Part shown: positions 8,421-25,708 of the stretch, in pieces
Position numbering within the stretch: the first letter of the stretch is position 1
Layout: every line of letters begins with the position of its first letter
DNA from: Delftia acidovorans NBRC 14950
GTDB lineage: Bacteria; Pseudomonadota; Gammaproteobacteria; Burkholderiales; Burkholderiaceae_C
Reading direction: 5' to 3'
Assembly (NCBI RefSeq): GCF_001598795.1
Contig: NZ_BCZP01000016.1
Coordinates: 1-32,000 of the forward strand
DNA: 32,000 bases
Notes under the pieces: model-generated
What the model saw: only the letters and a program-made list of their open reading frames with translations
The model's database searches: none
Told to the model about the DNA's origin: nothing
Translations under genes and position numbers: made by a program

Positions 8421-9328
8421 ACCAGCTGAGCGTCGTGAAGCCGCTCGTTGTCACGCCCGCGATGCTTGTGAGCACGGATGTGCCCGAGGCCGACTATCCA
8501 GAGTGGGCCTCGGGCACGGCTTATGCGAAGGGTGCCCGCGTGATCGTGGCCGCGCAGCACAAGGTCTACCAGAGCACTGCAGACGCCAACACGGGCAATA
8601 ACCCAACCATTCCAGTTGCAGAGCCTAAGTGGCTGGAGGTCGGCCCCACCAACCGCTGGAAGGTGTTCGACTCATCGAACTCCACACAGACGGCGCAGGC
8701 CAACAAGATCACGTACCGCTTGCGGCCTGGCCAGTCCATTCCGGCCCTGGGGGTGCTCAACATCCGGGCCGGCGTTGAGATCAAGGTCACCGTCTTTGAC
8801 GCCGGCGGGGCGCAGATCACGCAGCGCGTTATTCGCCTGGCGCGCTACCCGGTGTCGCCATCTTGGTGGGTATGGAACTTCGGTGAGAAGCGCGCGCCGA
8901 CGCAGGCCCTGATCACCGATCTGCCTTCCTATCCGACGGGAGAGATCCTCATCGAGATCACTGGCACTGCTCAGTTGGCTGTGGGCGTGATCCTGCTCGG
9001 CACCGTCCGCCGCTTTGCGCTGGGCGTCAAAGCTGGCGCACGCGTGGGCATCCAGGACTACTCGCGAAAAGAGCGTACTGAGTTCGGCGACACGGTGCTT
9101 GTGGAGCGCGCTTTCGCGAAGCGGGCCTCTCTGCAACTGCTGCTCACGGCATCCGAAGTGGACGCGCTCAACGACTTCATGGCTGAAGTGCGCGCAACGG
9201 CGTGCCTTTGGATTGGCTCCAGCCGCTACGAATCGACCACGGTCTATGGGTTCTACAAGAGCTTCGAGATCGCAATTACCTACTACGACTACTCCGACTG
9301 CGAGTTGGAGCTTGAGGGCTTGACATGA
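8417..9328 (+). CDS. Tail tip / distal tail protein with N-terminal carbohydrate-binding-like motif
   Basis: ATG 8417 overlaps the tape-measure stop (ATGA). The 303-aa product has WASGTAYAKGARVIVAAQHKVYQSTADANTGNNPT...PKWLEVG near the N-terminus, which resembles CBM5/12-type repeats. Position is immediately after the tape measure gene. Confidence 0.55.
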   Translation: MNQLSVVKPLVVTPAMLVSTDVPEADYPEWASGTAYAKGARVIVAAQHKVYQSTADANTGNNPTIPVAEPKWLEVGPTNRWKVFDSSNSTQTAQANKITYRLRPGQSIPALGVLNIRAGVEIKVTVFDAGGAQITQRVIRLARYPVSPSWWVWNFGEKRAPTQALITDLPSYPTGEILIEITGTAQLAVGVILLGTVRRFALGVKAGARVGIQDYSRKERTEFGDTVLVERAFAKRASLQLLLTASEVDALNDFMAEVRATACLWIGSSRYESTTVYGFYKSFEIAITYYDYSDCELELEGLT

Positions 9329-10560
9329 CCGATATCGTTACACCGCCAACTATTTCGGCGTTGCCACCTGCCCCGCTGGCAACCGACACCCCTACCGAGT
9401 TCGATGCCAAAGCGTTTGCGATGGTTGCTGCCCAGGTCGGGTTTGTCCCGCAGGCAAATGCGCTGGCGTCCAACGTCTTCAACAATGCGACTGCTGCTTT
9501 CGAGCGCACGGCAATTGCCCAGGCTGCAGCGTCTGCCGCATCGGGCAGCGCCTCAGCGGCGGCAGGGAGCGCGAGTGGAGCCAGTGGCAGCGCGTCAGCG
9601 GCTGCCAGTAGCGCGAGCACTGCTTCCTCTGCTGCGGGCACGGCCACAGCAGCCCTGACCGCGATGCAGGTCATGTACCTGGGCAGCAAGGCGGTCAACT
9701 CGCACCCTGCGACCGACAACATGGGCAACCCCCTGCAGGCCGGCGCCCTGTACACCAACACGGGCACGAATGCGGCGCTCAACAAGCGAGGCTGGTGGTG
9801 GGATGGCGCGGCCTGGCAGCTCGCTTGGGGCGACATCACGGGCGTCTACATGCCCACGACGGGGGGCACGTTCACGGGGCCGATCAATGTGCCTGCGGGT
9901 GCGACTGGCAACCAGGCGCCGCGTGTCAGCGAGGTTTTCAAGAAAGCTCCAGACGCATTCAACAAAACCAAACCCATGGGGGAGCTGGATGTGGGATACG
10001 CCCTGTTCACGACGACCTCGGGGCGCGGCGGGGACTGGCCACCGGAAACCTACGACGACCCGAACCAAGCCTGGCTTGTCGAGACGACGGGTGGAGCAGG
10101 GCGGGCCAAGCAGGTTGCAACGCAGCTGCTCACGACCACCTCGGCGCGCATTCAAAACAGCACATGGCAGCGTTCCCTGGAGGGGACGACCTGGGGCGCC
10201 TGGGACCGAGTGATCACCGCAAGGACTGCAATGGACCAGCAGGTGACGGCCAATGTACCCGCTGGTACAACGACATACACCCTCGACCCAAATCTGGGCG
10301 GGTCACACATCGTGACCATCAATGGCAGTTGCACGTTCAATTTGCCCGCAGGCCGTCAATACGGTGATCAGGTTGCGCTTGATGTCGTCAGTGCGGGAGC
10401 GATCCGCCCAATCAGCTTCTCGGCAAATGTCGCGCCGCCTCGCGATGGGACTGGCGCGCAATTGCCATTCCCTACGTATTCGACAGGGGCAGTTGTCTCT
10501 TTCCTTTTTCGTTGCATTTTGGTCAACCGTTGGGAATGCTATTACGCGGGGGTGCACTGA
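9325..10560 (+). CDS. Tail fibre protein
   Basis: ATG overlaps the previous stop (ATGA). The 411-aa product has an N-terminal fibre-like region and a Ser/Ala repeat (AAASAASGSASAAAGSASGASGSASAAASSASTASSAAG), followed by a globular C-terminal domain. Confidence 0.65.
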   Translation: MTDIVTPPTISALPPAPLATDTPTEFDAKAFAMVAAQVGFVPQANALASNVFNNATAAFERTAIAQAAASAASGSASAAAGSASGASGSASAAASSASTASSAAGTATAALTAMQVMYLGSKAVNSHPATDNMGNPLQAGALYTNTGTNAALNKRGWWWDGAAWQLAWGDITGVYMPTTGGTFTGPINVPAGATGNQAPRVSEVFKKAPDAFNKTKPMGELDVGYALFTTTSGRGGDWPPETYDDPNQAWLVETTGGAGRAKQVATQLLTTTSARIQNSTWQRSLEGTTWGAWDRVITARTAMDQQVTANVPAGTTTYTLDPNLGGSHIVTINGSCTFNLPAGRQYGDQVALDVVSAGAIRPISFSANVAPPRDGTGAQLPFPTYSTGAVVSFLFRCILVNRWECYYAGVH

Positions 10561-11267
10561 TGTTCGCGCGGAGTTTGATGATGGCCAGCGGGCAGCGGCA
10601 GATAACAGTCACTATCACCGCGAGTGTGCGTAGCCCAGATATCGCGGCACTTGCTACCGCGCAGGGGTGGCGCGGCACTGAAAACATCACTCTTGTGATC
10701 AATGCCGGGGTGGATGTGGCCACGCTGCAGATATCGGGCATTCCAGACGACCGGCTGCACATCATCAACAACGGTCGCATCGGCGGGGTGCTGAACAGTG
10801 GCACTGGCTTGTACACCCGCATCCGAATCCTCGTCACAAATAACGGCACGATATTCGGCAGCGGGGGCGCGGGTGGTCGAGGCAGCTCCGCAGGCTATTC
10901 ATACCCTGGGGGAACAAGCGATACAGCCCAGGGCGGAGTAGGTGGTAATGGCGCAGGATTTACTGCATCTGCAGCGGTATCCATGGTCGCCAGAGACACA
11001 AGCCCCGCCCCCACAAGCGGATCGTATGTCAGCTACTCCGGCGCGATTTTCCCTGGCGACACTCGCCCCTGGGCTCAGGGCGGCTTCGGCGGATCTGGTG
11101 GCGCTATTGGGGTTGCAGGAGCGAATGGCGAAAACGCATCCAGCGGAGGAACTGGTGCGACAGGCTCTGTCCCTGGGAGTCCGCCCGCTGCAGCTGGCTA
11201 CTACCTCGACGGAAACGCATACGTCACATGGCTTGCAACCGGCACGCGCCTCGGCCGCGTTATTTGA
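10560..11267 (+). CDS. Glycine-rich tail-fibre-associated protein
   Basis: ATG 10560 overlaps the previous TGA by 1 nt (TGATG). The 235-aa product has GGAGGRGSS...GGVGGNGAGF...GGFGGSGGAIGVAGANGENASSGGTGATG tracts. Position is within the fibre module. Confidence 0.5.
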   Translation: MFARSLMMASGQRQITVTITASVRSPDIAALATAQGWRGTENITLVINAGVDVATLQISGIPDDRLHIINNGRIGGVLNSGTGLYTRIRILVTNNGTIFGSGGAGGRGSSAGYSYPGGTSDTAQGGVGGNGAGFTASAAVSMVARDTSPAPTSGSYVSYSGAIFPGDTRPWAQGGFGGSGGAIGVAGANGENASSGGTGATGSVPGSPPAAAGYYLDGNAYVTWLATGTRLGRVI

Positions 11268-11275
11268 GGATCAAC

Positions 11276-11788
11276 ATGTACATCAACACCGAAACCGGGC
11301 AATACCCGCTGAGCGTTGCTCAGATCCAGGAGCTGCACCCGCTCACGATGATGGCCCAGCATCTGGAGTGCTATGCGCTCGTTGAGCCATCGGACACGCC
11401 GCCCCATGACGCGGACACGCACAAGCCTGTCGAGGTCGAGCCCGTGCAGGTCGATGGCGTGTGGCGGCAGCAGTGGTCCGTCGTGCCGCTGTCGGCAGAG
11501 GAACTCGCCGAGCTGCAGCGTCAGCGTGAAGCAGAAGCGGCGGCGCTGATCCCCAAGTCCTGCACGCGCCGGCAGGGGCAGCTTGCACTGCTCACCCATG
11601 GGGTGCTGGACGATGCCGAAGCGGCCATTGCGGCGATCACTGACCCCGTGCAAAAGCGCGAGGCCCAGATCGAGTACGAGGCGGACACCTGGGAGCGCGC
11701 GAACCCGTTCCTACAGCAGCTCTGGGCGCAACTCGGCGGCACGCCGCAGTCGCTCGATGAGGCCTTCGCGCTCGCTGTGACGCTCTGA
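11276..11788 (+). CDS. Phage protein, probable tail-fibre assembly/chaperone-like
   Basis: 170-aa ORF (MYINTETGQYPLSVAQIQELHP...), last gene of the tail operon before a strong terminator. Assigned by position and the N-terminal pattern only. Confidence 0.4.
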   Translation: MYINTETGQYPLSVAQIQELHPLTMMAQHLECYALVEPSDTPPHDADTHKPVEVEPVQVDGVWRQQWSVVPLSAEELAELQRQREAEAAALIPKSCTRRQGQLALLTHGVLDDAEAAIAAITDPVQKREAQIEYEADTWERANPFLQQLWAQLGGTPQSLDEAFALAVTL

Positions 11789-11806
11789 TCCAACCCGACC
11801 AACACC

Positions 11807-11828
11807 AACCCGCTTCGGCGGGTTTTTT
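11807..11828 (+). terminator. Rho-independent terminator after the tail operon
   Basis: AACCCGC ttcg GCGGGTT followed by a T-run (to 11828). Confidence 0.75.
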
Positions 11829-11857
11829 CATGCCCAAAGCAGCCCGGAGGAGGGCCA

Positions 11858-12154
11858 ATGCAAGACGACTACGGCGATGCCATCAACACGCAGACAGCGG
11901 CTGCGATCAATGCGCGGCTGGATGAGGGGGACGCACGGATGACCCGCATGGAGCGGGAGCTTGCGGCGAACACAGCGGCCACTGAACAGGTGCGAGCGAA
12001 CACAGCCGATCTGGTGGAGGTATTCCGTGCCGCGCAGGGCGCATTCCGCGTCCTGAATTGGATCGGCAAGGCCGCGAAGCCGCTGGGCTACATCGCCTCA
12101 GCCTGCGCTGCCTGCCTGGGCTTCTGGGCGGCGCTGAAAGGACACCTGAAATGA
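11858..12154 (+). CDS. Putative holin (single C-terminal TM)
   Basis: GGAGGAGG RBS. The 98-aa product has a long hydrophilic N-terminus and one C-terminal hydrophobic helix (PLGYIASACAACLGFWAAL). Its stop overlaps the endolysin start (ATGA). Assigned by position. Confidence 0.45.
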   Translation: MQDDYGDAINTQTAAAINARLDEGDARMTRMERELAANTAATEQVRANTADLVEVFRAAQGAFRVLNWIGKAAKPLGYIASACAACLGFWAALKGHLK

Positions 12155-12621
12155 GCAACAAGGCCAAACTGATCGCCGCCATCGGCGCCGCCGCTGCGGC
12201 TCTGGCCGTGCCCCTGGTCGCAAAGTATGAGGGAACAGTGCAGGCCACGTACCGTGATCCCATTGGCATCATCACCGCCTGCACTGGGCACACAGGCTCA
12301 GAACTGACCATCGGCCAGACGTTCACGCGCGAGCAGTGCGAGGACATGCTCTACAAGGATCTGCTCAAGCACACGGCCGCGCTGGAGTGCGTGCGACAGC
12401 CCATGACGGACGGGCAGAAGGCCGCGTTCCTGAGCTTCGCATTCAACGTGGGCAATGGGGCGTTCTGCGGCTCCACGCTGGCGCGCAAGGCCAATGCCGG
12501 CGACATGCAGGGCGCCTGTGCAGAGCTGAGCCGCTGGACCTGGGCGGGTGGTAAGCAGCTGCCGGGCCTGGTCAACCGGCGTGCGGCGGAGCGGCAGCTG
12601 TGCGAAAGGGGGCTGTCGTGA
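12151..12621 (+). CDS. SAR-type endolysin, GH24 (T4/P21-type lysozyme)
   Basis: N-terminal weakly hydrophobic Ala/Gly-rich segment KLIAAIGAAAAALAVPLVA. It is followed by the catalytic E-x8-D-x5-T pattern (YEGTVQATYRDPIGIITACTGHT) and the GH24 core (...FAFNVGNGAFCGSTL...). Confidence 0.85.
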   Translation: MSNKAKLIAAIGAAAAALAVPLVAKYEGTVQATYRDPIGIITACTGHTGSELTIGQTFTREQCEDMLYKDLLKHTAALECVRQPMTDGQKAAFLSFAFNVGNGAFCGSTLARKANAGDMQGACAELSRWTWAGGKQLPGLVNRRAAERQLCERGLS

Positions 12622-13127
12622 TTGCAGGGATCTACACCCATCTCGCGGCTGCTGGTGCGGCGCTGGCCATCGGTGTTGGCGGTGCCTGGTGGACCCAGGG
12701 CCAGCGCTACGGCTTGCAGATCGAGCAGCTGCAGCACCAGCAGACCATCGCCGCGTTGGCCAGCACGCAAAAGGCCGTCGCGGACATGGCCGGATTCCAG
12801 AAAGGACTGACCGATGCACTCGCAACCTTCCAGGCCACGGGCCAGCGCAACCAGGCCGCGCAGCAGGATCTGGAGCGCAGTCTGCGCGACCTGCGCACTG
12901 CTACTGCAGGCATGCGGGGCGACTTTGCAGGCCTCCCCGAGCGCATCGCTGGAGCTGCCCAGCCCGCCCTCGCTCAGTACGCCTCAACCTGCACAGCCGT
13001 ACTCCAAGAGTTGGCAGACCGAGGTGGACGCATGGCAGAGCGCGGTGCAGACATCGCGCGAGCGGCTGATGGCCACGCCGCTGACGCCGCGCTGATGCGG
13101 GATGCGTGGCCGAGGGTGTCGCGTTGA
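12618..13127 (+). CDS. i-spanin (Rz-like)
   Basis: GTG 12618 overlaps the endolysin stop (GTGA), with AAGGGGG upstream. The product has an N-terminal TM (IAGIYTHLAAAGAALAIGVGGAWW) followed by a coiled-coil-like periplasmic part. Confidence 0.7.
   Translation: MIAGIYTHLAAAGAALAIGVGGAWWTQGQRYGLQIEQLQHQQTIAALASTQKAVADMAGFQKGLTDALATFQATGQRNQAAQQDLERSLRDLRTATAGMRGDFAGLPERIAGAAQPALAQYASTCTAVLQELADRGGRMAERGADIARAADGHAADAALMRDAWPRVSR
12814..13095 (+). CDS. o-spanin (Rz1-like) embedded in the +1 frame of Rz
   Basis: The ORF lies entirely inside 12618..13127 in the +1 frame. It has a hydrophobic stretch ending in a LLQA|C lipobox-like site, and the mature part is proline-rich (ELPSPPSLSTPQPAQP). Confidence 0.55.
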   Translation: MHSQPSRPRASATRPRSRIWSAVCATCALLLQACGATLQASPSASLELPSPPSLSTPQPAQPYSKSWQTEVDAWQSAVQTSRERLMATPLTPR

Positions 13128-13234
13128 AGAGTTGCAAATACCAATTGAAGGAGGTACCAAAGGTTATCCGCGATTTGTTATAGACCTGATGTTCAGACAG
13201 CCCCTGGTAAAAGAACTGTCATTTACTTTGCAGC

Positions 13235-14155
13235 CTAATGGAATTTTCCGCAGCACTCCTTATATCGCTTGCCGCTTAAGCACGCACAAGGAGAATTTCG
13301 CGAAATCTTTGGCTGCTGTTTAGTTATTTTTTTCAATTCTTCTTCGAGGGCGAGCAATTCGCTAGCATGAATGATATAACCTAGGTTGTTTGGAATGGAC
13401 CCCACGGAAATCGCTTTTGTGTCGGTTGGTATATCAACTACAATAATTTCTCCCGTAGTAGAGTGCTGAGGGCCGGCGTATAGCGTGCCTAAAAGATATA
13501 TTCTGCTGCCTGCAATGAAGTTTCCTTCTTTGCTAACATAACTCCCGATGTTTGCCAAGAAAACCGGTGAGCCCGATGATCCCGGAAAGCATGCGGCATC
13601 TATTAAGAACTCATTCTTGCCGTTTAATTTCAACCCCGGATGGGTGGCAGTTATTCCCTTTCTGATAATTGGTAGATTATGTAGCTTGTCCCATAGTCCG
13701 TTTGGATATCCAATCATCACAATTTCCTCCATGGGAGGAAGAGAATTCAGAAGCTCCTGGCTCGCCAATAGATCGCTGCTAATTGCTCTGAAATAATATG
13801 ACCGACCATCCTTTGCCCCATTGCTAATAATTGGACCAATCGGAAATGCGGCGAGATCAATATCAGGTGATGGATGATTGACGCAATATTTATCCAAGTT
13901 GTCAAGTATGATAGGCTCGTGCTTTCCAAGGTCTGCGGTCCCGTCTTCTTTTTTCAAAGTAAGATGAAAAGTACCTTGGACTGCGCCTCGAACAACATGC
14001 TTGTTTGTTACCACGCACGGAATTGATTTGCCATCAGATTCGCAAAATAAATAAATATAGCCAGTTCCAGATGATTTTGCACCCCTTATGTTGGTGCATT
14101 CAATGCGCACTGTACTATGGACCAACTGTGAAATCGGGTGAATGAATTCAGACAT
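13235..14155 (-). CDS. Cytoplasmic trypsin-like (chymotrypsin-fold, Trypsin_2-type) serine protease with C-terminal SEC-C zinc-binding motif
   Basis: 306 aa with no signal peptide. Triad motifs are VVTNKHVV (His), PDIDLAAF (Asp) and FPGSSGSPVF (Ser). The C-terminus is SPCACLSGKRYKECCGKFH. The gene sits in a ~1 kb block of much lower GC than the phage. Confidence 0.85.
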   Translation of the reverse strand: MSEFIHPISQLVHSTVRIECTNIRGAKSSGTGYIYLFCESDGKSIPCVVTNKHVVRGAVQGTFHLTLKKEDGTADLGKHEPIILDNLDKYCVNHPSPDIDLAAFPIGPIISNGAKDGRSYYFRAISSDLLASQELLNSLPPMEEIVMIGYPNGLWDKLHNLPIIRKGITATHPGLKLNGKNEFLIDAACFPGSSGSPVFLANIGSYVSKEGNFIAGSRIYLLGTLYAGPQHSTTGEIIVVDIPTDTKAISVGSIPNNLGYIIHASELLALEEELKKITKQQPKISRNSPCACLSGKRYKECCGKFH

Positions 14156-14210
14156 ATTCAGTTGATTCTGGGGGATGCGATGGATCGATTTCTATTCGCA
14201 CATTGTGCAC

Positions 14211-14417
14211 TCAATCTTCCGGGCAGCACTCCATAGCCCAGTCCAGCGCCTCAGCCGCAGTAGGGTGCGGCCCGTTGAACGCGCGGATGCCGCGCTCATC
14301 GTCCCAGAGCGCGCCGGTCCAACGACGGGCAGCAGGGAAGGGCAGGCGGCCATAGTCCACCACGACCGCATACCAGCCCGGCGCCGTCGGCCTTCCGCCC
14401 CAGATGAACGAATTCAT
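14211..14417 (-). CDS. Hypothetical small phage protein
   Basis: 68-aa high-GC ORF (MNSFIWGGRPTAPGWYAVVVDYGRL...), same strand as and 55 bp upstream of the protease gene. No clear RBS. Confidence 0.35.
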   Translation of the reverse strand: MNSFIWGGRPTAPGWYAVVVDYGRLPFPAARRWTGALWDDERGIRAFNGPHPTAAEALDWAMECCPED

Positions 14418-14625
14418 GCGGCTCAGCCAGCGGCTGCTCGGGCTCGGGCTTTACTTGTAGAGATGGGGCTACTTCCGGGGGCATGATGACCTGTATGCAC
14501 GACCCTCGCTGTGAATCTATGGGCTCGGGAATAAGCCTCTGACGGTCGCTTCAGTGCTTGCTCAGGTTTTTATGTGTATTCCCAAAAAATCACTTAACCT
14601 ATTGATTTTTATAGATTGAGAGTCT

Positions 14626-14733
14626 GACTTTTAATCCGTTGGTCGCGAGTTCGAATCTCGCAGGACCCACCAAAGAACACAAGGCCCCGTAGCAATACGG
14701 GGCCTTTTTCTTTGCTATCGAAGAAGTAGCAAA
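14626..14733 (+). repeat. Copy 1 of the att-type direct repeat: 3' 47 nt of tRNA-Lys(UUU) (14626-14672) plus the tRNA terminator and ~40 nt beyond
   Basis: GACTTTTAATCCGTTGGTCGCGAGTTCGAATCTCGCAGGACCCACCA covers the anticodon loop CTTTTAA, variable loop, T-arm, 3' acceptor strand and CCA. The 5' half is absent (upstream sequence cannot pair). It is nearly identical to 22058-22165. Confidence 0.85.
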
Positions 14734-14754
14734 ACGGAACAGAGATTTGCGGCC

Positions 14755-14788
14755 CGTGTTCCGCAATTCTGGGCGTGTTCCGCAATTC
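14755..14788 (+). promoter_or_regulatory. Two direct 15-bp repeats CGTGTTCCGCAATTC (candidate integrase arm-type sites)
   Basis: Exact copies at 14755-14769 and 14774-14788 (19-bp period), between the att repeat and the integrase 3' end. Confidence 0.35.
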
Positions 14789-15500
14789 ACCGCACGGGCT
14801 TCACCTTCTTGCCCACCTTGTGGCGGATGTACTGCGCTGTCATGCCCTCCGTTGTATGCCCCAGCAGCGCCTGGGCATGGCGTATCCCGCCGTCGTCATC
14901 CACAGTGGTGGCGGCCGTGGAGCGCAGGTCCCGAAACTGGAATTGCGCCTTGGGAATGCCGGCGGCATCCCGAGCGGCGTCGAAGCGGTCGCGGAGCATG
15001 TTCTTTGTCAGCGGCTGACCCGCCTCGCTCACAAGCAGCTGCGCGGTGTCTGCTTTGACCTGGGCTTTGTACGCCTGGATCTTGGCCAGCAGCTCCTGAA
15101 GTGCGCCTGTTACCTCGATGCGCAGCTTGGCTGTCTTGCCCTGGCGGACGTGGAGCATGCCGCCGGCGATGTGGTCGGTGCTCATGCGAAGCACGTCGGC
15201 CGGGCGCTGGCCAGTGAGGAGCGCCAAGTGGACAGCGAACCGCAGGGATACTGCGGCCTTCTCCAACAGCCGAGCCATCAGGTCGTCGCCGACTACGACA
15301 TCCCGCCCATCCTCCCGGAAGCCTCGCATGCCTGCGCAGGGGTTGGAGGCCTTCGTGAGGCCCTGTTCCCGAGCAAAGTTCCACATGTGCGAGAACAGGG
15401 ACTTCTCCCGATTGGCGCGCACCTGGCCGATGGAATCCGGAATCGTCTGAGCCGGTAGTCCAACTTGCCTAAGGGCGCAATGCGGGGGGAGTGACTTGGC
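14787..15500 (-). pseudogene. int: Lambda-type tyrosine integrase, N-terminally truncated (catalytic domain only)
   Basis: LLTGQRPADV (catalytic Arg), FRDLRSTAAT (box with second Arg) and AQALLGHTTEGMTAQYIRH (His...Tyr) parallel lambda Int. The frame is open only from 15500. The first Arg is at about residue 73-99, against about 212 in lambda Int, so the arm-binding and most of the core-binding domains are missing. GC drops sharply at 15500. Confidence 0.8.
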
Positions 15501-15598
15501 TCATGCTGGTCCAGAACACAGAAAGCCAGCTCTGTGGCTGGCTTTTTGAAGAAGGAGAGATCAGGACAGCGCACTTCACGCGCTGTGCTCACGCACGG

Positions 15599-15622
15599 AA
15601 AAAAAGCCACTGTTGAGTGGCT
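15599..15622 (-). terminator. Rho-independent terminator of small-gene cassette copy 1
   Basis: AGCCACT gttg AGTGGCT, preceded on the + strand by an A-run (a T-run on the - strand). A second hairpin AGCCAGC tctgtg GCTGGCT TTTT lies at 15524-15547. Confidence 0.55.
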
Positions 15623-15650
15623 TTGATCTGGTTAACGAAGGTTTGCCTAG

Positions 15651-15821
15651 CTAAGCATCTCGATTTATTTGCTTTTCTTCTTCATAGATCCTTCGTTCCT
15701 CTCTGGATAAAGGGTCATTCTTTCTTTTGCTATCAAGTGCTTCTATCTGAACTCCTGGAGAAAAGATACTCTTGACGGAATCCCAAAAGACTTCCCATGG
15801 GGTGCGAGGTTGTGAAAGCAT
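15651..15821 (-). CDS. Small protein B (cassette copy 1), unknown function
   Basis: 56 aa, MLSQPRTPWEVFWDSVKSIFSP...IYEEEKQ, with GGAG 6 nt upstream of the ATG. Paralogue at 17354..17617. Confidence 0.65.
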   Translation of the reverse strand: MLSQPRTPWEVFWDSVKSIFSPGVQIEALDSKRKNDPLSREERRIYEEEKQINRDA

Positions 15822-15833
15822 ATTAAACTCCAA

Positions 15834-16046
15834 TTATCTTCCGTTGAGGTAGGGAGGAGGTGTGTCCCGCAGTTCAGCAGAATCCAAATTTATAGTAAAT
15901 TCTGTGTCCCAATCGCTGATTTTTTTCTTACGAGGTGGGTCAGGTGTGCGGAAATAGTCATCGTTAGATACAGCATGACTATCAACATCTGGAAGAGAAT
16001 ATTTATTTTGGCGGCTAAATGAGCCTTTTGTGTCTTTGACTTTCAT
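15834..16046 (-). CDS. Small protein A (cassette copy 1), unknown function
   Basis: 70 aa, MKVKDTKGSFSRQNKYSLPDVDSHAVSNDDYFRTPDPP..., with a GGAGG RBS. Paralogue at 17589..17849. Confidence 0.65.
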   Translation of the reverse strand: MKVKDTKGSFSRQNKYSLPDVDSHAVSNDDYFRTPDPPRKKKISDWDTEFTINLDSAELRDTPPPYLNGR

Positions 16047-16087
16047 GTGGACCTCCGGTCCTGTGTGTTGACCGAAAACGACCAACT

Positions 16088-16156
16088 TTTTTCACACTAC
16101 TCTGATTTCCAGCGGAAAACCGTTTGGGTAACAACAATTACCTATATGTAGAAGCG
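16088..16156 (-). promoter_or_regulatory. Conserved upstream block of cassette copy 1 (putative promoter/operator)
   Basis: About 90% identical to 17890-17957. It lies about 41-110 nt upstream of the A start and contains GGTAA-ttgttg-TTACC dyad symmetry (- strand). Confidence 0.45.
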
Positions 16157-16623
16157 GATCAGGGCAGCGAAGCCCGTCGCGAGAGGGCGCGTCTCGCGCC
16201 CCGCATCCATGCCCTCAGGAAATGTCAGGAACTGCTCGCGGTCTTTGCAAACGATCCATCTCGGGGGCTGTTATGAAGGAAAAAGACCCCTGGCAGTCTC
16301 GCATCCAGGGGCTTGGGGAGCCGCCTAGACTTGGCGCGCACCCCTTTGAGTGGCGTATGGGCCTGTCGTTGCTTAACTGTTGGCCGTTCTTATAAGAGGC
16401 TGCTTCCGGACCTTGCGGTATCTCCAGGCCGCAGGCTGGCTTGGCTGCGCGAGAAGGTACCAAGACAGCGTGCTGCACGTGCTGCGCTCATGCTTCTCGA
16501 TATGTGTACGCGGATGTAATACAGCTTCCAAAGTAACAAAAATAGGCGCCCAATGAAACTGCTCATTGGCAATTTCGTTTCCTCCAGAGGCGTTCCTTAA
16601 TTTGAAATTCGGGAGAAAATGTT

Positions 16624-16863
16624 ATGGATCAAAGAATAAGTGAGCCCGAGCTAGGGGCATTGCACGTTTGGCATGTAAGCATGGTGCTGCTGGCACGCCG
16701 TGGCGAGATGCTTGGAATTTCTGTATATGAAGCGCCTGCGATCGCAAGCCTAGCCGCACGCTGTGAGTCCCCATATCACATGCTAGTGATAGAGGTAGAC
16801 GATCCTTGGGATGTGTCCACCCAAAATTGCATTCGCGCGAGCCTTAGCAGGTTTACGGCATAG
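16624..16863 (+). CDS. Hypothetical protein
   Basis: 79-aa ORF with a GGGAGA RBS. No recognisable motif. Confidence 0.35.
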   Translation: MDQRISEPELGALHVWHVSMVLLARRGEMLGISVYEAPAIASLAARCESPYHMLVIEVDDPWDVSTQNCIRASLSRFTA

Positions 16864-17054
16864 GCTCGTCTGCGTTTAAAACACTCAGACTCTCGCCGTT
16901 TTGTCGTATAAATGACATGTTGCCCAAAAAATCCCTTTTCTGGTGCATGCAATAAACACAATGCTTGTGATAGATGTGAAATGGCTAATGGGCCTAGATG
17001 TTGAATTGCATTTGTCTTACAGCGCTCACCAGTACAGAAGCTCATGCTGTGTTA

Positions 17055-17192
17055 ATGACCACGCCTAGTAAAAAATCCCCTGGCCAAGTGCCCACATCCT
17101 CTTCTCGTAACAGGTTTTCTACGCGCAGGACACTCTACATCGGCATCGCTGTGGTAATTGTTGCTCTTCTGGTTACGCTTGTTCCCTGGTAG
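17055..17192 (+). CDS. Possible small C-terminally anchored membrane protein
   Basis: 45 aa, MTTPSKKSPGQVPTSSSRNRFSTRRTLYIGIAVVIVALLVTLVPW. No strong RBS. Confidence 0.25.
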   Translation: MTTPSKKSPGQVPTSSSRNRFSTRRTLYIGIAVVIVALLVTLVPW

Positions 17193-17313
17193 ATGATCAC
17201 GGCTGCTTTTGCGAGCTGTACGTAACAGCCTTGCGGGGAAGTGCGATCCCAAAAAGGCCTCTATGAAGAGGTTTAGGGGAGAGATTATAAAAACAGAGTG
17301 GTTCAGATGGATG

Positions 17314-17343
17314 AAAAAGAGCCCGCATTCAGCGGGCTTTTCT
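17314..17343. terminator. Bidirectional terminator hairpin (terminates cassette copy 2 on the - strand)
   Basis: AGCCCGC attca GCGGGCT, flanked by an A-run (17314-17318) and a T-run (17338-17341). Confidence 0.6.
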
Positions 17344-17353
17344 ATAATTATCA

Positions 17354-17617
17354 TTATATCGGTCTGTGATATTTATCCTCGCGTCCCTCTATATGTGCAT
17401 TGTGCCTATTGATGTGTTCATGCTGAGAAGATGCTTGGCTGTACGACGGGGCGTTGAGATTGTTTTGAAGCTCTTCTTCGTATATTAATATATCTTCTTT
17501 AGACAAGGGGTAATCTTGCTCAGTGGTTTCTATGGGATCTAGGTGAGCTTTGGGAGAAAATACGGTTTTTATAGAATCCCAGAATTTTTCAAAAGGGGTA
17601 CGAGGGAGTAAGAACAT
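17354..17617 (-). CDS. Small protein B' (cassette copy 2), unknown function
   Basis: 87 aa, MFLLPRTPFEKFWDSIKTVFSP...IYEEELQ plus a His/Gln-rich tail, with GGAGG 5 nt upstream of the ATG. Confidence 0.65.
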   Translation of the reverse strand: MFLLPRTPFEKFWDSIKTVFSPKAHLDPIETTEQDYPLSKEDILIYEEELQNNLNAPSYSQASSQHEHINRHNAHIEGREDKYHRPI

Positions 17618-17849
17618 ATTGGCCTCCAGTGTGCAAGCCATTTAGAGAGGGCGGGCATATCTGTCGTTCGCGCAATACGGCAGATTTAAGAGCGACCAGA
17701 GATGCTGTATTCCACCAGCTGCGCATTATTTTGTGCGGTGGATCAGGAGTGTGGGAGTAATCATCTCTTGATACGGAATGGCTATCAACATCAGGTAGCG
17801 AAAAACTTTCGATGTGGATGGTTGAATCAGATTTTTTTCTTAATTTCAT
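17589..17849 (-). CDS. Small protein A' (cassette copy 2), unknown function
   Basis: 86 aa, MKLRKKSDSTIHIESFSLPDVDSHSVSRDDYSHTPDPP..., with an AGGAG RBS. Its 3' end overlaps the B' start in another frame. Confidence 0.6.
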   Translation of the reverse strand: MKLRKKSDSTIHIESFSLPDVDSHSVSRDDYSHTPDPPHKIMRSWWNTASLVALKSAVLRERQICPPSLNGLHTGGQYVLTPSYPF

Positions 17850-17889
17850 GTGAAACTCCTGTTTGGATCGTTGGTCAAAGATGACTTAC

Positions 17890-17957
17890 TTTTCACACTA
17901 CTCTGATTTGCGCGGTAAAACCGTTTGCGTAACAATAATTACCTATATGTAGTAGCG
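17890..17957 (-). promoter_or_regulatory. Conserved upstream block of cassette copy 2
   Basis: TTTTCACACTACTCTGATTT...AAAACCGTTTG.GTAACAA.AATTACCTATATGTAG is shared with 16088-16156. Confidence 0.45.
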
Positions 17958-18016
17958 TTTCATGGCGTCGAAGGACATTAGAAGAGGGCGCAAGGCACTC
18001 CCTGTGCTTCTGGCTA

Positions 18017-18404
18017 TCAGGAAATCATCAGGAAACTCTCACGGTGTTTACCTGTTCGCGTTTGTCGGAACTTTCGAAGGTCCGAGATCTTCTTGTCCAG
18101 AGCCTTCGCTGCGCCATGAGCCCTGGCCAGCGGCACATCTGCCAACACTCCATCAGCATCCTCTCCGCGCTGAACCCGGGCTTTGAACTCGTTCTCGCTG
18201 ATGTGGATCCGCTTAAGGTTCTCGTGGTGGGCGTTGCTCTGGCCGTTGGCGCCGCGCGTGTTCCCGTAGAGGCGACCTGCCAGAACACGACAAGGCTCGC
18301 CGTCGAGATGGTTCCGTCGTTGGTGCCCAGCACTGCAGCGCGCAGCCAACCTACCTGAGCGGTTCATGGCGCTCAGGATGCGTTCGATAGTGGAATGACT
18401 TCAT
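18017..18404 (-). pseudogene. VIT/CCC1-family protein relic (frameshifted, C-terminal membrane domain missing)
   Basis: ATG at 18404 gives MKSFHYRTHPERHEPLR, then TAG. The adjacent frame continues VGWLRAAVLGTNDGTISTASLVV, the hallmark GWLRAAVLGxNDG motif of VIT-family proteins. Downstream frames are only weakly family-like. Confidence 0.45.
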
Positions 18405-18523
18405 AGGCATCTTTTCGTCAACGCGAGGAGCGCCAAGCAGTATGCGGCAGCGTGTTGTCGTGTGGGATGTAGTGATTATTTTCATGGCTTCTCTAGTGGG
18501 GAATAAATTTCCATTAAGCTTTA

Positions 18524-19210
18524 TCAGCCTTCGGATAATGCCATGGATTTTTTTATTCGATCGATCGCCGCAACTACGCCCGCCTCAAAATCTCTCCAGT
18601 TTTTTACGCCAGAGTGACGCATTTCATTCATCTTCTCATCTGCGGATTTAATCTCGGTATGCATTCTATTAATGTGCATTTGAATATTTACTTTGGCATC
18701 GGAGCTTGCCAAGTCATATTTCTTCTCAAGTTCTGATACCGCTGCCTTCCCTTTGGATATCTCCTTTCCGGCATTTGCTAAGAACTGCTCGCGAACCATT
18801 GCCTCGTTGGTGTAGGTGAATGCTGGCATGTCCTTCACACTTTGTTTTGTAGCCCCCATGATAATCAGTTTTCCTGATATTTCATTAATTTCACGGATTG
18901 GAATGGCCACATCATGTTGTCCTATTCCGACAAACCCTCCTGCACTCACGATGGCATAAGTCACGTTCTTGTCAGGTGAAATAATAAGATCATCTACTCT
19001 GCCAACTTTTCCCCCAGTGTCGTTAAATATAAACTTTCCTATCAGTGATTTCTTTGCGCTCCATCCCAGGGCAGCGCTGGTGGTTTGGGAGGTCTTAACA
19101 TCCATTGTGGTAGTTGATCCTGCAATTTGTGCCCTTGCTGTTGCAGCAGAAGCTAGGACAGCGGCTAATGCCAGAACGGCAAGAAAATGGTGTGAATGTT
19201 GATTTTTCAT
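18524..19210 (-). CDS. Secreted PRC-barrel domain protein
   Basis: GGAGAG RBS and signal peptide MKNQHSHHFLAVLALAAVLASAATARA|Q. PRC-barrel-like core GKVGRVDDLIISPDKNVTYAIVSAGGFVGIGQHDVAIP, then a helical C-terminal half. Confidence 0.7.
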   Translation of the reverse strand: MKNQHSHHFLAVLALAAVLASAATARAQIAGSTTTMDVKTSQTTSAALGWSAKKSLIGKFIFNDTGGKVGRVDDLIISPDKNVTYAIVSAGGFVGIGQHDVAIPIREINEISGKLIIMGATKQSVKDMPAFTYTNEAMVREQFLANAGKEISKGKAAVSELEKKYDLASSDAKVNIQMHINRMHTEIKSADEKMNEMRHSGVKNWRDFEAGVVAAIDRIKKSMALSEG

Positions 19211-19442
19211 GATTGAGGCTCTCCAAAACGTACCACATCGGGTGTTGGATGTTTGGTGTACGATTTATCGCTTTTATACTTATCAAGTAGCGCTGTCTGT
19301 ACGCGAACCTACAGTGGCTTTTTTAACCCTGACACCCTTGATGCAGAAATTTCTCTGGAAATATTTCAAGTGTGTGCTGGCGCACAGACATGATTTTAGG
19401 TTAGACATATTATTCTGATTGTTGAAGCATCTAGGAATTACC

Positions 19443-20093
19443 ATGAAAACTGACACACAATTACAGCAAGATGTAATGGCAGAGTTGAAGTGGGAGCCTT
19501 CTGTGCACGCATCCCAGATTGGTGTAGAGGTCAAGGATGGCGTTGTCACTTTGGCTGGAGAGGTCAGTAGCTATTTGGAAAAATGGGGGGCTGAAAGGGT
19601 CGTGCAACGTGTGATAGGTGTTAGAGCCTTGGCGATCGACATGACTGTCAAGTTGTCGCAAATGGGAAAGAGGACTGATACCGATATCGCGGCATCCGCG
19701 CGAAACGTGCTTAGCTGGACGAATTCGGTTCCTATCGACACCGTTCAGGTCCTTGTAGAAGATGGTTGGATTACCTTGTCTGGGGAAGTGGTTTGGAACT
19801 ATCAGCGTAGCGATGCTGCCGACAGAGTGCGCCTCTTGCCGGGAGTGCACGGTGTGAGCAACCAAATTTCCATCAAACCCAGGGCTTCAGCCATCGTCGT
19901 AAAGTCAGAAATCGAGGATGCCATCAAGCGTCGTGCGACTTCTGATACGAAAACGATTGTTGTTGATGTCACGGGTGGCGATGTGACGTTAACAGGGACC
20001 GTCCGTAGTTGGATGGAGCGTGATCTCGTAGTTCATTCTGCCTGGGGAAGCCCGGGTGTCCGCCAGGTATTTGACAGGATGACCATCATCTGA
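19443..20093 (+). CDS. BON-domain (OsmY-like) protein
   Basis: AGGAA RBS. The repeated pattern D..L...V...L.W.P.V....I.V.V.DGVVTL.G.V occurs three times (MKTDTQLQQDVMAELKWEPSVHASQIGVEVKDGVVTLAGEV...). Confidence 0.75.
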   Translation: MKTDTQLQQDVMAELKWEPSVHASQIGVEVKDGVVTLAGEVSSYLEKWGAERVVQRVIGVRALAIDMTVKLSQMGKRTDTDIAASARNVLSWTNSVPIDTVQVLVEDGWITLSGEVVWNYQRSDAADRVRLLPGVHGVSNQISIKPRASAIVVKSEIEDAIKRRATSDTKTIVVDVTGGDVTLTGTVRSWMERDLVVHSAWGSPGVRQVFDRMTII

Positions 20094-20197
20094 CAATTTT
20101 GGCGAAGGCCGGGGGCATGAATCGTTGTCGCCAATTCATAGCCATTGTCGTCGTGCCTACCTGAAGCGGATGTCTGATGAATCAGAAAGGATCTGAG

Positions 20198-20400
20198 CCA
20201 TGACCGAAACCTGTCCAAAGTATGCAGAAATAGGGTGAAAGAGGCATGATTTCGAAAACACTAGAAGCGTGGATGATTAAAAATGTGTTTTCTTTTTTGT
20301 CTATTTCAGCGGAACGGATTTTTAATCTGTTGGTCGCGAGTTAGAATATCCAAGGACCCAACAACAAAAACGCGGAAGCCGCGCTATCGTAAAAGTAGCG
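20198..20400 (+). repeat. Copy 3 (degenerate) of the att-type repeat: conserved arm (20198-20265), mutated tRNA-Lys 3' fragment (20315-20363) and a terminator-like tail
   Basis: CGGATTTTTAATCTGTTGGTCGCGAGTTAGAATATCCAAGGACCCAACA aligns to copies 1 and 2 with several substitutions. The upstream 68 bp are about 85% identical to 21924-21991. The tail CTATCGTAAAAGTAGC matches CTATCGAAGAAGTAGC. Confidence 0.6.
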
Positions 20401-21838: not shown

Positions 21839-21923
21839 TCTATGCCCTGCTGGGTTAGACCAAAGTGGAGATTTCTGACACCGGCGATGCGCTGATAGTG
21901 GAGGGTTCAGGCAGGCGGTGTGC

Positions 21924-22165
21924 TATGATCAAAACCTGCCCAAAGTAGGCTGAAATAGGGTGAAAAAGGCATGATTTCGAAAACACCAGATGAGTGGCTA
22001 TCGTTGCAAGTGATTGATACGAAAGGTATTTTCTCTTATGCCTATTTCGATAGATCGGACTTTTAATCCGTTGGTCGCGAGTTCGAATCTCGCAGTACCC
22101 ACCAAAGAGCACAAGGCCCCGTAGCAATACGGGGCCTTTTTTCTTTGCTATCGAAGAAGTAGCAA
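21924..22165 (+). repeat. Copy 2 of the att-type repeat: conserved arm (21924-21991), tRNA-Lys 3' fragment (22056-22104), and terminator plus tail (to 22165)
   Basis: CGGACTTTTAATCCGTTGGTCGCGAGTTCGAATCTCGCAGTACCCACCA. It differs from copy 1 by 1 nt in the acceptor strand (GTACCC vs GGACCC). The downstream hairpin AAGGCCCCGtagcaataCGGGGCCTTTTTT and CTATCGAAGAAGTAGCAA are shared with copy 1. Confidence 0.85.
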
Positions 22166-23709: not shown

Positions 23710-23723
23710 ACACGCAGACGAAG

Positions 23724-23753
23724 AAAAGGCCCGCAGTTGCGGGCCTTGTTTTT
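23724..23753. terminator. Bidirectional terminator between convergent genes
   Basis: AAGGCCCGC agtt GCGGGCCTT, flanked by an A-run and GTTTTT. Confidence 0.75.
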
Positions 23754-23767
23754 AGGTCAGGGCTGCA

Positions 23768-25708
23768 TCAACGCTGGCGGCGTATGCGACGCAGGCCGAA
23801 CATCGCCAGCAGGGCAGACATCAGAATGACGCCCCACTCGCTGAGCGTAGGAATGGCTGCGGCGCCGCCGACTGGAGCTGCTGCCAGCACGGGCACGAGT
23901 GGGTCTGCGATCACGCCCACGGCAGGGTTGGTATCACCCGGGCCGTTGTCGGTGATGGTGTAGGTCACCGTGGTGCGCGCACCGTTCACGATGACGTTCA
24001 GCGCGGTCACAGGGTCGAACCATCCGCCGGCTCCATCGGGCTTGCGGAACTGCACGCCCTCGGGGAGAGCGCTGGGATAGGTGAGGGTCATCGTCACAGA
24101 TCCGGTGCAGTTTTCGGCGCTGAAAGCGAATTGACCGCTGGGCGCTTGGAGGTTCGGAGGGGTGGAGGTCACAGGTCCGAAGCCGCCGCCAGGCTGCAGC
24201 GTGCAGGTGGTGCCGCCGCCGGACATCGTGGCAGACGGTATGCCGGTCATGCCAGGCACACTGCCGGGCGCGCTCACCAGTTGCAGCTTGCGCGGCGTGG
24301 CTTGTGTGCTTGCAGAGGCTGCACCGGTTGTCCCGTTGGATGCCGCGACCGTGAAGTTGTAGGTGAAGCCATTGCTCAGGCCAGCCACGACGATGGGGGA
24401 TGTCGTTCCTTGCTGAGTGATTACACCAGGCGCACCGGGCACGGCCACGGGGGTTGCGGTCACGGTATAGCCTGTGATGGGGGTGCCGCCGTTAGATGCA
24501 GGTGCAGTAAAGGTCACCGTAGCCTGTCCGTCGGCTGCAGTGACGTTGCCGATGGTGGGGGCTCCGGGTGCCGCTGCATTCACCATGAAGGTTTGAGACA
24601 CCTGTGATGCAGGCAGATAGCTTGCGTTACCACTTTGGTTCGCATCGACGGTGCAAGAGCCTGTGTTCACAAAAGTCAGCATGCCGCCCGAGGTGACCGT
24701 GCACACGGCAGTTGTGGTTGCACTGAAGGCCACGGGCAGGCTGGAACTGGCCGTCGCGGTCAGTGTTGGCGTTGTGCCGAAAGTTTGGTCGCCGGGGTTT
24801 GTGAACGTGATGCTCTGGGTTTGCTGTCCATTCACCAGTACGCCGGTCGTGGCGCCTACGTTTGCCAAATTCAGTACAACGTTGGTGCCTCCGCTCGTCA
24901 TCGTGCTCCCATTGAGATTGATGGCTGTCCCTAACGTCACTCCATTTGCATCCAAGTCACCTGGCTGCACGGTGTATATGAAAGTCAGGGTGGAGGTGTT
25001 GCTGCCACCGACGAAGTTCGCTTGCCGGACAGTTGAACCAATCGTCAAAGGAATTGACGGTGGGCCGCCAGCTGTGACGGCGACGGGAGCGCTGTAGGTC
25101 ACATTGAACTGCAGGTTCTGTCCAGCACTATAGGTTCCGTTGGGAGGAACGCTTACTGATTGCACTGAGGGGGCAGCGGCCGCAAGCATGTAGCTCAGCG
25201 CGGTTTGGCAGGCGTTGGCGTCTGTGATGGTCACCCAATATTGACCGGGAGCTAGTCCTGTCGCGGTTGCCGCTGTGCCCCCGGAGGGGATCCAGGCGTA
25301 GGTGTAGCCAGGAGTCCCCCCGCTCGCGACAACTGCTGCGCTACCGTTGTTGCCTCCAGTGGGATTGATCTGCGACTTTGTGCCTGATAGGGCTGCTACA
25401 GGTTGTCCAACTGTGACAGACGCAGTTCCCTGTAAGTTGTTCGAGTCAGTAACTTCGACGGTGTAAGTGCCAGCCATGAGCCCTGAGGCGGTAGCGTTTG
25501 TGCCTCCAGTGGGTGCCCATGAGTAGGAGAAGGGCGCAACACCGTTCTGGATGCTGTGGGCCGTGGCTGTGCCATTGTTTCCTCCGTAACACGAGACATT
25601 GGTATGTGATGTGGATACGTTGAGCAACTGTGCGCTGGCGGAGCCAGCAAAGGCCACAAGAGCCACGGCGCTGCCCAGTGCCCATGTGCGGAAATTCCCG
25701 GATGACAT
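23768..25708 (-). CDS. Secreted surface protein: two SprB-type repeats, Ig/FN3-like domains, C-terminal IPTL-CTERM sorting signal
   Basis: Signal peptide ...ALVAFAGSASA|Q. SprB-like repeats are VSCYGGNNGTATA...FSYSWAPTGG...LMAGTYTVEVTD and GGNNGSAAV...YTYAWIPSGG...LAPGQYWVTITDANAC. An FN3-like segment is APGAPTIGNVTAADGQATVTFTAPASNGGTPITGYTVTA. The C-terminus is IPTLSEWGVILMSALLAMFGLRRIRRQR. Confidence 0.85.
   Translation of the reverse strand: MSSGNFRTWALGSAVALVAFAGSASAQLLNVSTSHTNVSCYGGNNGTATAHSIQNGVAPFSYSWAPTGGTNATASGLMAGTYTVEVTDSNNLQGTASVTVGQPVAALSGTKSQINPTGGNNGSAAVVASGGTPGYTYAWIPSGGTAATATGLAPGQYWVTITDANACQTALSYMLAAAAPSVQSVSVPPNGTYSAGQNLQFNVTYSAPVAVTAGGPPSIPLTIGSTVRQANFVGGSNTSTLTFIYTVQPGDLDANGVTLGTAINLNGSTMTSGGTNVVLNLANVGATTGVLVNGQQTQSITFTNPGDQTFGTTPTLTATASSSLPVAFSATTTAVCTVTSGGMLTFVNTGSCTVDANQSGNASYLPASQVSQTFMVNAAAPGAPTIGNVTAADGQATVTFTAPASNGGTPITGYTVTATPVAVPGAPGVITQQGTTSPIVVAGLSNGFTYNFTVAASNGTTGAASASTQATPRKLQLVSAPGSVPGMTGIPSATMSGGGTTCTLQPGGGFGPVTSTPPNLQAPSGQFAFSAENCTGSVTMTLTYPSALPEGVQFRKPDGAGGWFDPVTALNVIVNGARTTVTYTITDNGPGDTNPAVGVIADPLVPVLAAAPVGGAAAIPTLSEWGVILMSALLAMFGLRRIRRQR

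Follow-up and report, generated by a model that had tools for sequence, protein, structure and literature searches.

A prophage in the 32,000-nucleotide (nt) stretch of Delftia acidovorans NBRC 14950 analysed here (contig NZ_BCZP01000016.1, positions 1 to 32,000; hereafter the window) carries, at the end of its lysis cassette, about 1 kb of foreign DNA of low guanine-plus-cytosine (GC) content. This block holds a single gene, which encodes a predicted cytoplasmic trypsin-like protease with a SEC-C motif at its C-terminus. The original prediction, made from the letters of the window, had singled out the gene as horizontally acquired cargo and a candidate effector of defence or exclusion. The window does not reach the left end of the prophage, which is expected to carry an intact tRNA-Lys and the integrase. 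The central features of the locus are the following, with sizes of proteins in amino acids (aa).

12600 to 13127, plus strand: Rz-type i-spanin, 175 aa, last gene of the lysis cassette, following and overlapping the Phage_lysozyme gene (phrog_5777; transmembrane-like segment at the N-terminus)
13114 to 14165, no strand assigned: imported low-GC block, consisting of a bare open reading frame (ORF), about 120 nt of 3' sequence and 5–17 nt of 5' leader (alignments with relatives and GC profile)
13235 to 14155, minus strand: protease ORF, 306 aa, ATG start, the sole long ORF of the block (ORF list, PADLOC and PHROGs)
13244 to 13300, minus strand: SEC-C (SecA-type) putative metal-binding motif, residues 286–304 (Pfam, 23.9 bits against a cut-off of 20.4)
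13556 to 14044, minus strand: Trypsin_2 protease domain (PA clan, HtrA-like), residues 38–200, with His53, Asp100 and Ser194 (Pfam, 36.1 bits against a cut-off of 27.6)
14211 to 14417, minus strand: backbone gene of 68 aa, GC 0.68 (ORF; also annotated as a gene in GCA_000741825.1)
14623 to 14732, plus strand: 3' half of a tRNA-Lys(UUU) (14623–14672) with a hairpin terminator (14681–14706) (sequence reading; the terminator is strong)

The drop in GC content of about 1 kb behind the lysis genes, first noticed by eye, was borne out by measurement. In 200-nt windows, GC was 0.66–0.70 between 12400 and 13100, 0.41–0.48 between 13100 and 14200, and 0.69 between 14200 and 14400. GC at third codon positions (GC3) was 0.42 in the protease ORF, compared with 0.70–0.82 in the genes for the tape measure, tail fibre, endolysin, Rz and 68-aa protein and in a nearby integrase fragment. 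The block contains one long ORF antisense to the phage late operon, whose product bears out the original prediction in detail: it has the motifs TNKHVV, DIDLAAF and GSSGSPVF, with CACLSGKRYKECCGKFH at its C-terminal end. A search of 5.8 billion proteins found 4,952 homologues of the 306-aa protein; the closest was a 100% match in Delftia acidovorans (P0001), and the nearest non-identical one was 76% identical (E = 1e-160). These homologues indicate that the ORF is a genuine conserved gene and exclude a chance ORF.

Among the prophage contigs of IMG/VR, 23 carry an Rz that is 79–96% identical to that of the window, and 28 carry a homologue of the 68-aa protein, up to 96% identical. Five contigs have both anchors, and the intervals between Rz and the 68-aa gene were compared in these and in the window:

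L095, 299 nt: essentially empty, GC 0.62
L097, 517 nt: a secreted-looking protein of 156 aa whose N-terminus is signal-like
Window, 1,089 nt: the protease
L113, 1,283 nt: an acyltransferase (Acyl_transf_3), GC 0.36
L108, 1,748 nt: two unknown proteins
L094, 2,575 nt: unknown proteins, including one of 313 aa with a weak match to a DnaJ-type zinc finger

The protease is present in none of the five slot-sharing relatives, and no recognised PADLOC system was found among their slot cargoes. The acyltransferase of L113 is of a kind well known from lysogenic conversion. Alignment with L095 and L097 placed the left junction at 13113/13114, where homology ends 14 nt before the Rz stop codon; the insert therefore supplies the last four Rz codons and the stop, and the end of Rz1 at 13095 lies outside it, untouched. 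The block had been thought to start directly after the Rz stop at 13127. Its foreign DNA begins those 14 nt earlier, the region of lowered GC spans about 13114–14170, and homology to the related prophages resumes at about 14172. The right junction falls at about 14160–14172 in alignments with L095, L097, L108 and L113, and with the ATG at 14155 this leaves an imported leader of 5–17 nt. The sharp junctions, the empty or differently filled slots of the relatives and a GC3 of 0.42 against about 0.75 establish that the gene is horizontally acquired single-gene cargo of the prophage, as had been proposed. The protease gene is thus a moron, a single foreign gene inserted into a Delftia acidovorans prophage at a slot whose cargo varies. 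To the earlier description our analysis adds the exact anatomy, namely the junctions of a bare ORF, a swappable slot with empty and alternative states, the context of the attachment (att) site, and the standing of SEC-C as a minority add-on.

The slot had been placed between a lysis cassette and an attachment site, and its surroundings agree with this, with holin, Phage_lysozyme and Rz on one side and the tRNA-Lys fragment on the other. The fragment lies about 200 nt beyond the 68-aa gene and about 470 nt from the slot. A unit of about 110 nt, comprising the tRNA fragment, the terminator and about 25 nt beyond, is repeated directly at 22055–22165 with 97% identity. The feature at 14623 to 14732 is read as an att repeat and is probably the right end of the prophage. 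Alignment of the region upstream of the 68-aa gene did not define the phage end, the relatives having a different upstream gene there.

The protein matches the PADLOC-DB profile PDC-S45 (E = 2e-116, 386 bits, residues 5–279 against positions 14–288 of 293) and the PHROGs family phrog_7688 (E = 6.9e-69), which is listed there as of unknown function. The NCBIfam match covered the SEC-C tail only, and NCBI annotation uses the names 'S1 family peptidase' and 'SEC-C motif family protein' within the family. Thus the earlier statement that no named defence system could be recognised needs qualification: the family is catalogued, and its entry PDC-S45 is an unvalidated candidate only. The locus adds a clean example of a listed candidate family, and no new kind of system. 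A marginal PADLOC match to the protease part of the type XI retron reverse transcriptase-protease (E = 0.002) was rejected, as neither the ORF nor its neighbours contain a reverse transcriptase.

Next to the Trypsin_2 match above the Pfam cut-off, an alignment of 30 sequences from Beta- and Gammaproteobacteria, with hosts ranging from Delftia to Francisella, upheld the complete catalytic triad that had been read from the sequence. H53, D100 and S194, in the order His-Asp-Ser, were invariant, as were about 70 further positions. Around Ser194 the alignment reads IDAACFPGSSGSP, similar to the HtrA active-site motif, TDAAINPGNSGGP. An AlphaFold2 model (predicted local distance difference test (pLDDT) 79.3, predicted template-modelling score 0.79) has a chymotrypsin double barrel followed by a helix at residues 266–280 and then the tail. 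Foldseek comparison, which the original prediction had suggested as a check, pointed to a chymotrypsin-type fold; DegQ, DegP and DegS came first, followed by TEV protease and FAM111A (probability 1.0, E about 1e-7, template-modelling (TM) score about 0.45, 12–18% identity). Comparison of the model with viral structures gave generic 3C-like matches only, and a sequence search of the PDB matched only the tail (YchJ-C, SecA). The loop at residues 232–254 (about 13394–13462 of the window) is conserved in the family (GPQHTTTGE...VPTDTK), yet it is the sole segment with a pLDDT below 50, and could be mobile, with a part in regulation or oligomerisation.

The absence of a signal peptide was confirmed by hydropathy analysis. 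The 19-residue Kyte-Doolittle mean reached its maximum of 1.19 within an active-site strand, the N-terminus was not hydrophobic, and the scan found neither a transmembrane segment nor a signal-peptide-like N-terminus in the 306-aa protein, so there is no sign of protease export. Pfam found no PDZ domain in the protein, whose C-terminus instead consists of the helix and SEC-C. Like HtrA, DegP, DegQ and DegS (MEROPS S1C), which include its top Foldseek matches, the protein has a predicted double-barrel fold and the His-Asp-Ser order. It differs from this group in its low similarity (15–18% identity, TM score about 0.45), in having a helix and SEC-C in place of PDZ domain and signal peptide, and in being encoded by a mobile, patchily distributed gene. 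These features indicate a predicted cytoplasmic protease that is related to the HtrA group but divergent and devoid of PDZ, and is not HtrA proper.

The Cys-x-Cys...Cys-Cys ending had been assigned to SEC-C, and both the Pfam score and the canonical CxCx8CC spacing (C290-x-C292-x8-C301-C302) confirmed this; S294, Y298 and the basic residues K296, R297 and K299 (a KRYK patch) are also present. The tail profile matches the tails of YchJ-C and SecA in the PDB. The SEC-C domain of SecA binds Zn or Fe, SecB and ribosomes, and binding relieves autoinhibition by the C-terminal tail; the same domain is found in YecA, YchJ and many bacterial methionine aminopeptidases (bioRxiv 10.1101/613315). In YchJ the motif lies within a redox-sensing DNA-binding protein, and Rugutis, a validated lactococcal defence protein, also bears one. 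The Delftia tail shares with the SecA C-terminal domain, YecA and YchJ the cysteine pattern, the Ser and Tyr, the KRYK patch and a C-terminal position after a linker. It differs from them in being joined to a protease. By analogy with these proteins, the tail is probably an address or a switch for the protease.

Of the 5,993 relatives returned by an exhaustive profile search of 1.84 billion representatives, 1,780 had E <= 1e-30; the family comprises about 1,780 clusters at 50% identity. Most relatives are 275–295 aa long and end near profile position 277–283, and among the 150 best only about 8 extend into the tail; a tail-less subclade was also seen in the 30-sequence alignment. These lengths mark SEC-C as an accessory found in a minority subclade, not a character of the family. 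Most members are without it, which rules it out as the centre of the mechanism.

The distribution of the family is very patchy. A pattern scan of one genome per species confirmed 203 relatives among 185,579 species genomes, belonging to Proteobacteria, Cyanobacteria, Bacteroidota, Firmicutes, Planctomycetota and Verrucomicrobiota, with single relatives also in a metagenome-assembled genome of Thermoplasmata and on a Piscirickettsia plasmid. Homologues were found in 36 plasmid records, including Acinetobacter plasmids of 9–13 kb. ORF calling and all-versus-all clustering of the neighbours in 85 loci brought out no conserved gene, and the most frequent family turned up in 12 of the loci at scattered positions; this is unlike the stable housekeeping neighbourhoods that the original prediction had named as evidence to the contrary. 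In 76 loci compared with 5 kb of flanking DNA, the protease gene was on average about 6 points AT-richer than its flanks, with GC more than 3 points lower in 48 and higher in 7 (Wilcoxon p = 6e-9), and in hosts with a flank GC of 0.60–0.74 the gene had a GC of 0.48–0.57. Gene GC and flank GC remained correlated (r = 0.79), which together with the AT-richness suggests repeated transfer with partial amelioration. The neighbourhoods themselves were diverse, as in the following examples:

Kluyvera (L003): integrase, protease, a 366-aa gene, an AAA_15/21 ATPase and hsdS-M-R
Variovorax P2-like prophage (L089): ogr and, further on, a helix-turn-helix gene, an AAA_15/21 ATPase, the protease, HigB with a small ORF, gpD and gpU
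Xanthomonas: integrase back-to-back with the protease, then DUF4145
Vibrio: protease in a variable region flanked by IS110
P. syringae: an insertion sequence (IS) element adjoining the protease, with a Dam methylase and a pyocin activator nearby
Salinibius (L016): protease two genes past a Type I restriction endonuclease (hsdR)
GCA_902156615.2 (L145, 10001–11518; P0084, 505 aa): about 200 spanin-like N-terminal residues merged with the protease
Shigella phage SfII (L093, 6049–6669; SfII_57, hypothetical): partial homologue of residues 65–230, 32% identity

The position in the Variovorax prophage is presumably the antiviral hotspot of P2. The SfII homologue, the sole match when phages were searched with tblastn, follows holin, lysin, Rz/Rz1 and IS911 and precedes an HNH endonuclease at the genome end. 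We considered P0084 as a domain fusion and rejected it; its N-terminal part reads as the transmembrane segment of an i-spanin plus the lipobox of an o-spanin (LALSGC), and the 505-aa product is probably an artefact of gene calling. As read here, the protease of GCA_902156615.2 probably follows directly on lysis genes.

The 148 proteins encoded within two genes of the protease in 37 loci included ResIII, SWI2/SNF2, REase_I, AAA_15/21 ATPases, ApeA, DpdE, other PDCs, integrases and transposases. Embedding in BREX, DISARM or Type I restriction-modification (R-M) operons was considered as well: the window copy sits in a prophage slot, and hsdR or hsdSMR adjoin some of the homologues. Counts of integrases, hsd genes and ATPases made with jackhmmer are of low sensitivity and give lower bounds, not enrichment statistics; the Delftia integrase fragment, for example, was not seeded. 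AAA_15/AAA_21 ATPases (GajA-, PtuA-, AriA- or Old-like) were observed one to five genes from the protease in three unrelated hosts, at L003 (12471–14372), L089 (2768–4540) and L145 (5829–7100). As a regular partner of the protease this ATPase was rejected, with AAA_21 in only 3 of the 148 neighbours and none in the window. The neighbourhoods clearly point to a mobile, stand-alone family that is not housekeeping. Enrichment at prophage ends or in defence islands had been proposed as a check; homologues occur next to integrases, in prophages, on plasmids and beside R-M genes, and a link of the family to known defence genes exists but is modest. A modest link was also noted for PDCs generally by Payne et al. 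2024 (bioRxiv 10.1101/2024.01.29.577857).

In the rest of the window, the plus-strand late region of the prophage is of siphovirus type and encodes a neck or tail-completion protein, a major tail protein, a 1,630-aa tape measure (TMP_2), a GP38-type protein, a tail-fibre-like protein and a 98-aa ORF of holin size. The endolysin of the lysis cassette is a Phage_lysozyme (E = 9e-40), and an ORF embedded in Rz in the +1 frame (12814–13095) has the lipobox LLLQAC; the two ORFs have the appearance of the usual Rz/Rz1 spanin arrangement. The 68-aa gene is co-oriented with the protease gene and lies 55 nt upstream of it; its product has no match in Pfam, PHROGs or PADLOC. Megablast of positions 9000–16000 of the window against 50,697 phage records gave no match, so the prophage is without a close sequenced relative among those records.

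Beyond the probable right end of the prophage lies DNA that appears to come from other elements. Here a truncated tyrosine integrase follows the tRNA fragment:

14787 to 15422, minus strand: tyrosine integrase of 211 aa, C-terminal catalytic part only (Pfam Phage_integrase, E = 5.5e-18; phrog_1, positions 229–435 of 611)

An out-of-frame ORF of 105 aa lies upstream of it (15293–15610, minus strand), so the remnant, part of a decayed island next to the prophage, is likely to be a pseudogene that arose by frameshift or truncation. A perfect 15-nt tandem direct repeat, CGTGTTCCGCAATTC, occurs at 14755–14769 and 14774–14788, 19 nt apart, in the stretch from the tRNA fragment to where the integrase remnant has its 3' end; these repeats may be arm-type recombinase binding sites. 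The region 15500–20300 is about 5 kb of AT-rich, ORF-poor DNA that holds genes with PRC-barrel and BON domains. A degenerate middle copy of the tRNA-fragment unit lies at 20314–20400, and the sequence at 22040–22101 scores as a tRNA in Rfam; ARAGORN found no intact tRNA in the window. A 91-nt repeat (20182–20272 and 21907–21997, 82%) precedes the second and third copies of the unit. We infer that the locus is a tRNA-Lys integration hotspot, where the prophage ends at the first fragment and one or two decayed islands follow. Past 22165 there are ordinary chromosomal genes, including those for IPTL-CTERM surface proteins, a CBAH hydrolase and aroA. On the minus strand at 23721–23817, downstream of a 646-aa IPTL-CTERM gene, a sub-threshold Rfam match to Trp_leader (26.4 bits against a gathering threshold of 41) coincides with a GC-rich hairpin and a T-run, and is most likely a plain intrinsic terminator.

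What might this gene do for the prophage and its host? We consider a role in defence or exclusion plausible, with a probability of about 0.5 on the evidence of sequence comparison. Transcription would probably run into the gene from the 68-aa backbone gene, so that it would likely be expressed in the lysogen, where its product would be held latent as sensor and effector in one protein. Infection by another phage would then lead to cleavage of a host or phage protein and block phage production, by superinfection exclusion or by abortive infection. By analogy with SecA, the SEC-C tail would most likely be a docking or autoinhibitory module that tunes where or when the protease acts; it would not be essential, as most family members are without it.

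The known systems that come closest share parts of this scheme. The match to PDC-S45 covers nearly the full length of the profile, and the single-gene label (S) of that entry fits a gene without a conserved partner; differences are that the profile stops before the SEC-C tail, that this copy sits in a prophage slot and not in BREX, DISARM or Type I R-M, and that PDC-S45 is itself a prediction. PDCs were nominated because BREX, DISARM or Type I R-M operons contain some of their members, and PADLOC took up 145 such candidates without testing (bioRxiv 10.1101/2024.01.29.577857). In the literature PDC-S45 appears in one paper, which reports a match in a Sinorhizobium prophage. The trypsin-MBL modules (Hachiman, Avs2) and the nuclease-protease pairs resemble the Delftia protein, as far as the published accounts go, in using a trypsin-fold protease and proteolysis as an antiviral switch; as described there, they sit beside a sensor and a pro-effector that is cleaved, whereas the Delftia family shows no conserved neighbour in 85 loci. 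With no adjacent partner, the protease would have to find its trigger and its target elsewhere. The closest functional analogy is Lit of the e14 prophage, likewise a prophage-borne, single-protein latent protease, which responds to a phage product by cutting a host translation factor and so aborts the infection. Lit, a zinc metalloprotease, is unrelated in sequence and fold, and the analogy is one of logic only.

Several observations weigh against a role in defence. No sigma-70-like promoter was found upstream on the minus strand and no clear Shine-Dalgarno sequence before the protease ATG; the imported block comes without a promoter of its own, since it has only 5–17 nt upstream of the start codon. 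Should the protease be expressed, the likeliest route would be read-through that starts at the 68-aa gene and runs antisense to the late operon. Neighbours of the homologues are often ordinary chromosomal genes such as gyrA, metH and gshB, only 1 of 10 large adjacent proteins had a PADLOC match, and a count of low sensitivity put HsdM-like genes no more than 10 kb away in 9 of 84 loci. The SEC-C tail is absent from most of the family, and the sequence does not point to any particular substrate, trigger or partner. A literature search found no experimental test of PDC-S45 or of any protein combining trypsin and SEC-C, and a later paper leaves out the PDCs 'because they are unvalidated'.

Other explanations have to be set beside the defence role. 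The protease could serve the phage or another mobile element. It might degrade defence or regulatory proteins of the host in counter-defence or host takeover, or it might regulate lysogeny or the rivalry among prophages, for instance by cutting a competing element's repressor. Carriage by prophages at lysis- or att-proximal positions and a PHROG family of unknown function would fit this, as would the fact that trypsin-like defence proteases, insofar as the published accounts describe them, act on a specific partner protein and not in bulk. We nevertheless regard a phage-serving function as unlikely: most homologues lie outside recognisable phages, on chromosomes, in integrase islands and on plasmids, with no common partner, the antisense orientation to the late operon argues against lytic takeover, and the PDC listing rests on embedding in R-M and BREX operons, which fits host defence better. 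The gene could also be a silent passenger, a bare promoterless ORF that landed in a recombination-prone slot and stays unexpressed or without function there. The very short leader, the lack of a promoter-like site on the minus strand and the weak ribosome-binding sequence are what would be expected in this case, and the neighbouring island is decaying, with its truncated integrase and degenerate att copies. Yet the ORF is full length and retains all invariant residues of the family, the conserved co-oriented backbone gene 55 nt upstream could drive its expression, and the same slot holds other cargoes, which suggests that the slot is expressed; we find a mere passenger quite unlikely.

Stabilisation of mobile elements by addiction, with a latent toxic protease checked by an unlinked or variable partner, would account for the repeated occurrence of the gene on small plasmids and bordering mobile elements. 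In Kluyvera, Variovorax and GCA_902156615.2 an AAA_15/21 ATPase is encoded a few genes away from the protease, and there is a precedent in IetS/IetA (ietAS), a pair of a serine-protease toxin and an ATPase antitoxin that is also anti-phage. The comparison is weakened in that the AAA_21 share of neighbours is only 3 of 148 and no neighbour family exceeds 12 of 85 loci, that IetS is described only as a serine protease and is not among the PADLOC matches, and that the Delftia copy has no ATPase nearby, so that an addiction function seems distinctly unlikely. Two further readings take the ribosome as their starting point. In one, SEC-C would dock the latent protease on the ribosome or on SecB, where it would sample new phage proteins and, once triggered, cleave a component of translation or secretion; tail-less relatives would use a different address. 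Drawn as it is from the analogy with SecA, this version of the defence role is a long shot, and if true it would describe a ribosome-resident, one-protein sensor and effector of abortive infection, a mechanism not described for any defence system. In the other, the protein would be a housekeeping protease of cytoplasmic quality control, tethered to the ribosome by SEC-C and unrelated to phages. An HtrA-like active-site motif and the ribosome binding of SecA-type domains, one of which many methionine aminopeptidases carry, would be in keeping with such a function. It is highly improbable, given the presence of the family in so few species genomes, neighbourhoods that all differ, a gene that is AT-rich relative to its flanks, its carriage on prophages, plasmids and islands, and the absence of SEC-C from most members.

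Returning to defence or exclusion as the favoured role, PDC-S45 is a large and scattered family with no assigned function, flagged as possible immunity by genomic association only. The Delftia locus offers an unusually clean natural experiment for it, in which a defined slot holds a bare ORF and relatives of the prophage supply isogenic-like versions that are empty or carry alternative cargo. If the gene proves not to be protective, the PADLOC candidate could be retired. If it is protective, it would represent a minimal one-protein serine-protease immunity system, with a testable role for SEC-C as an address or switch.

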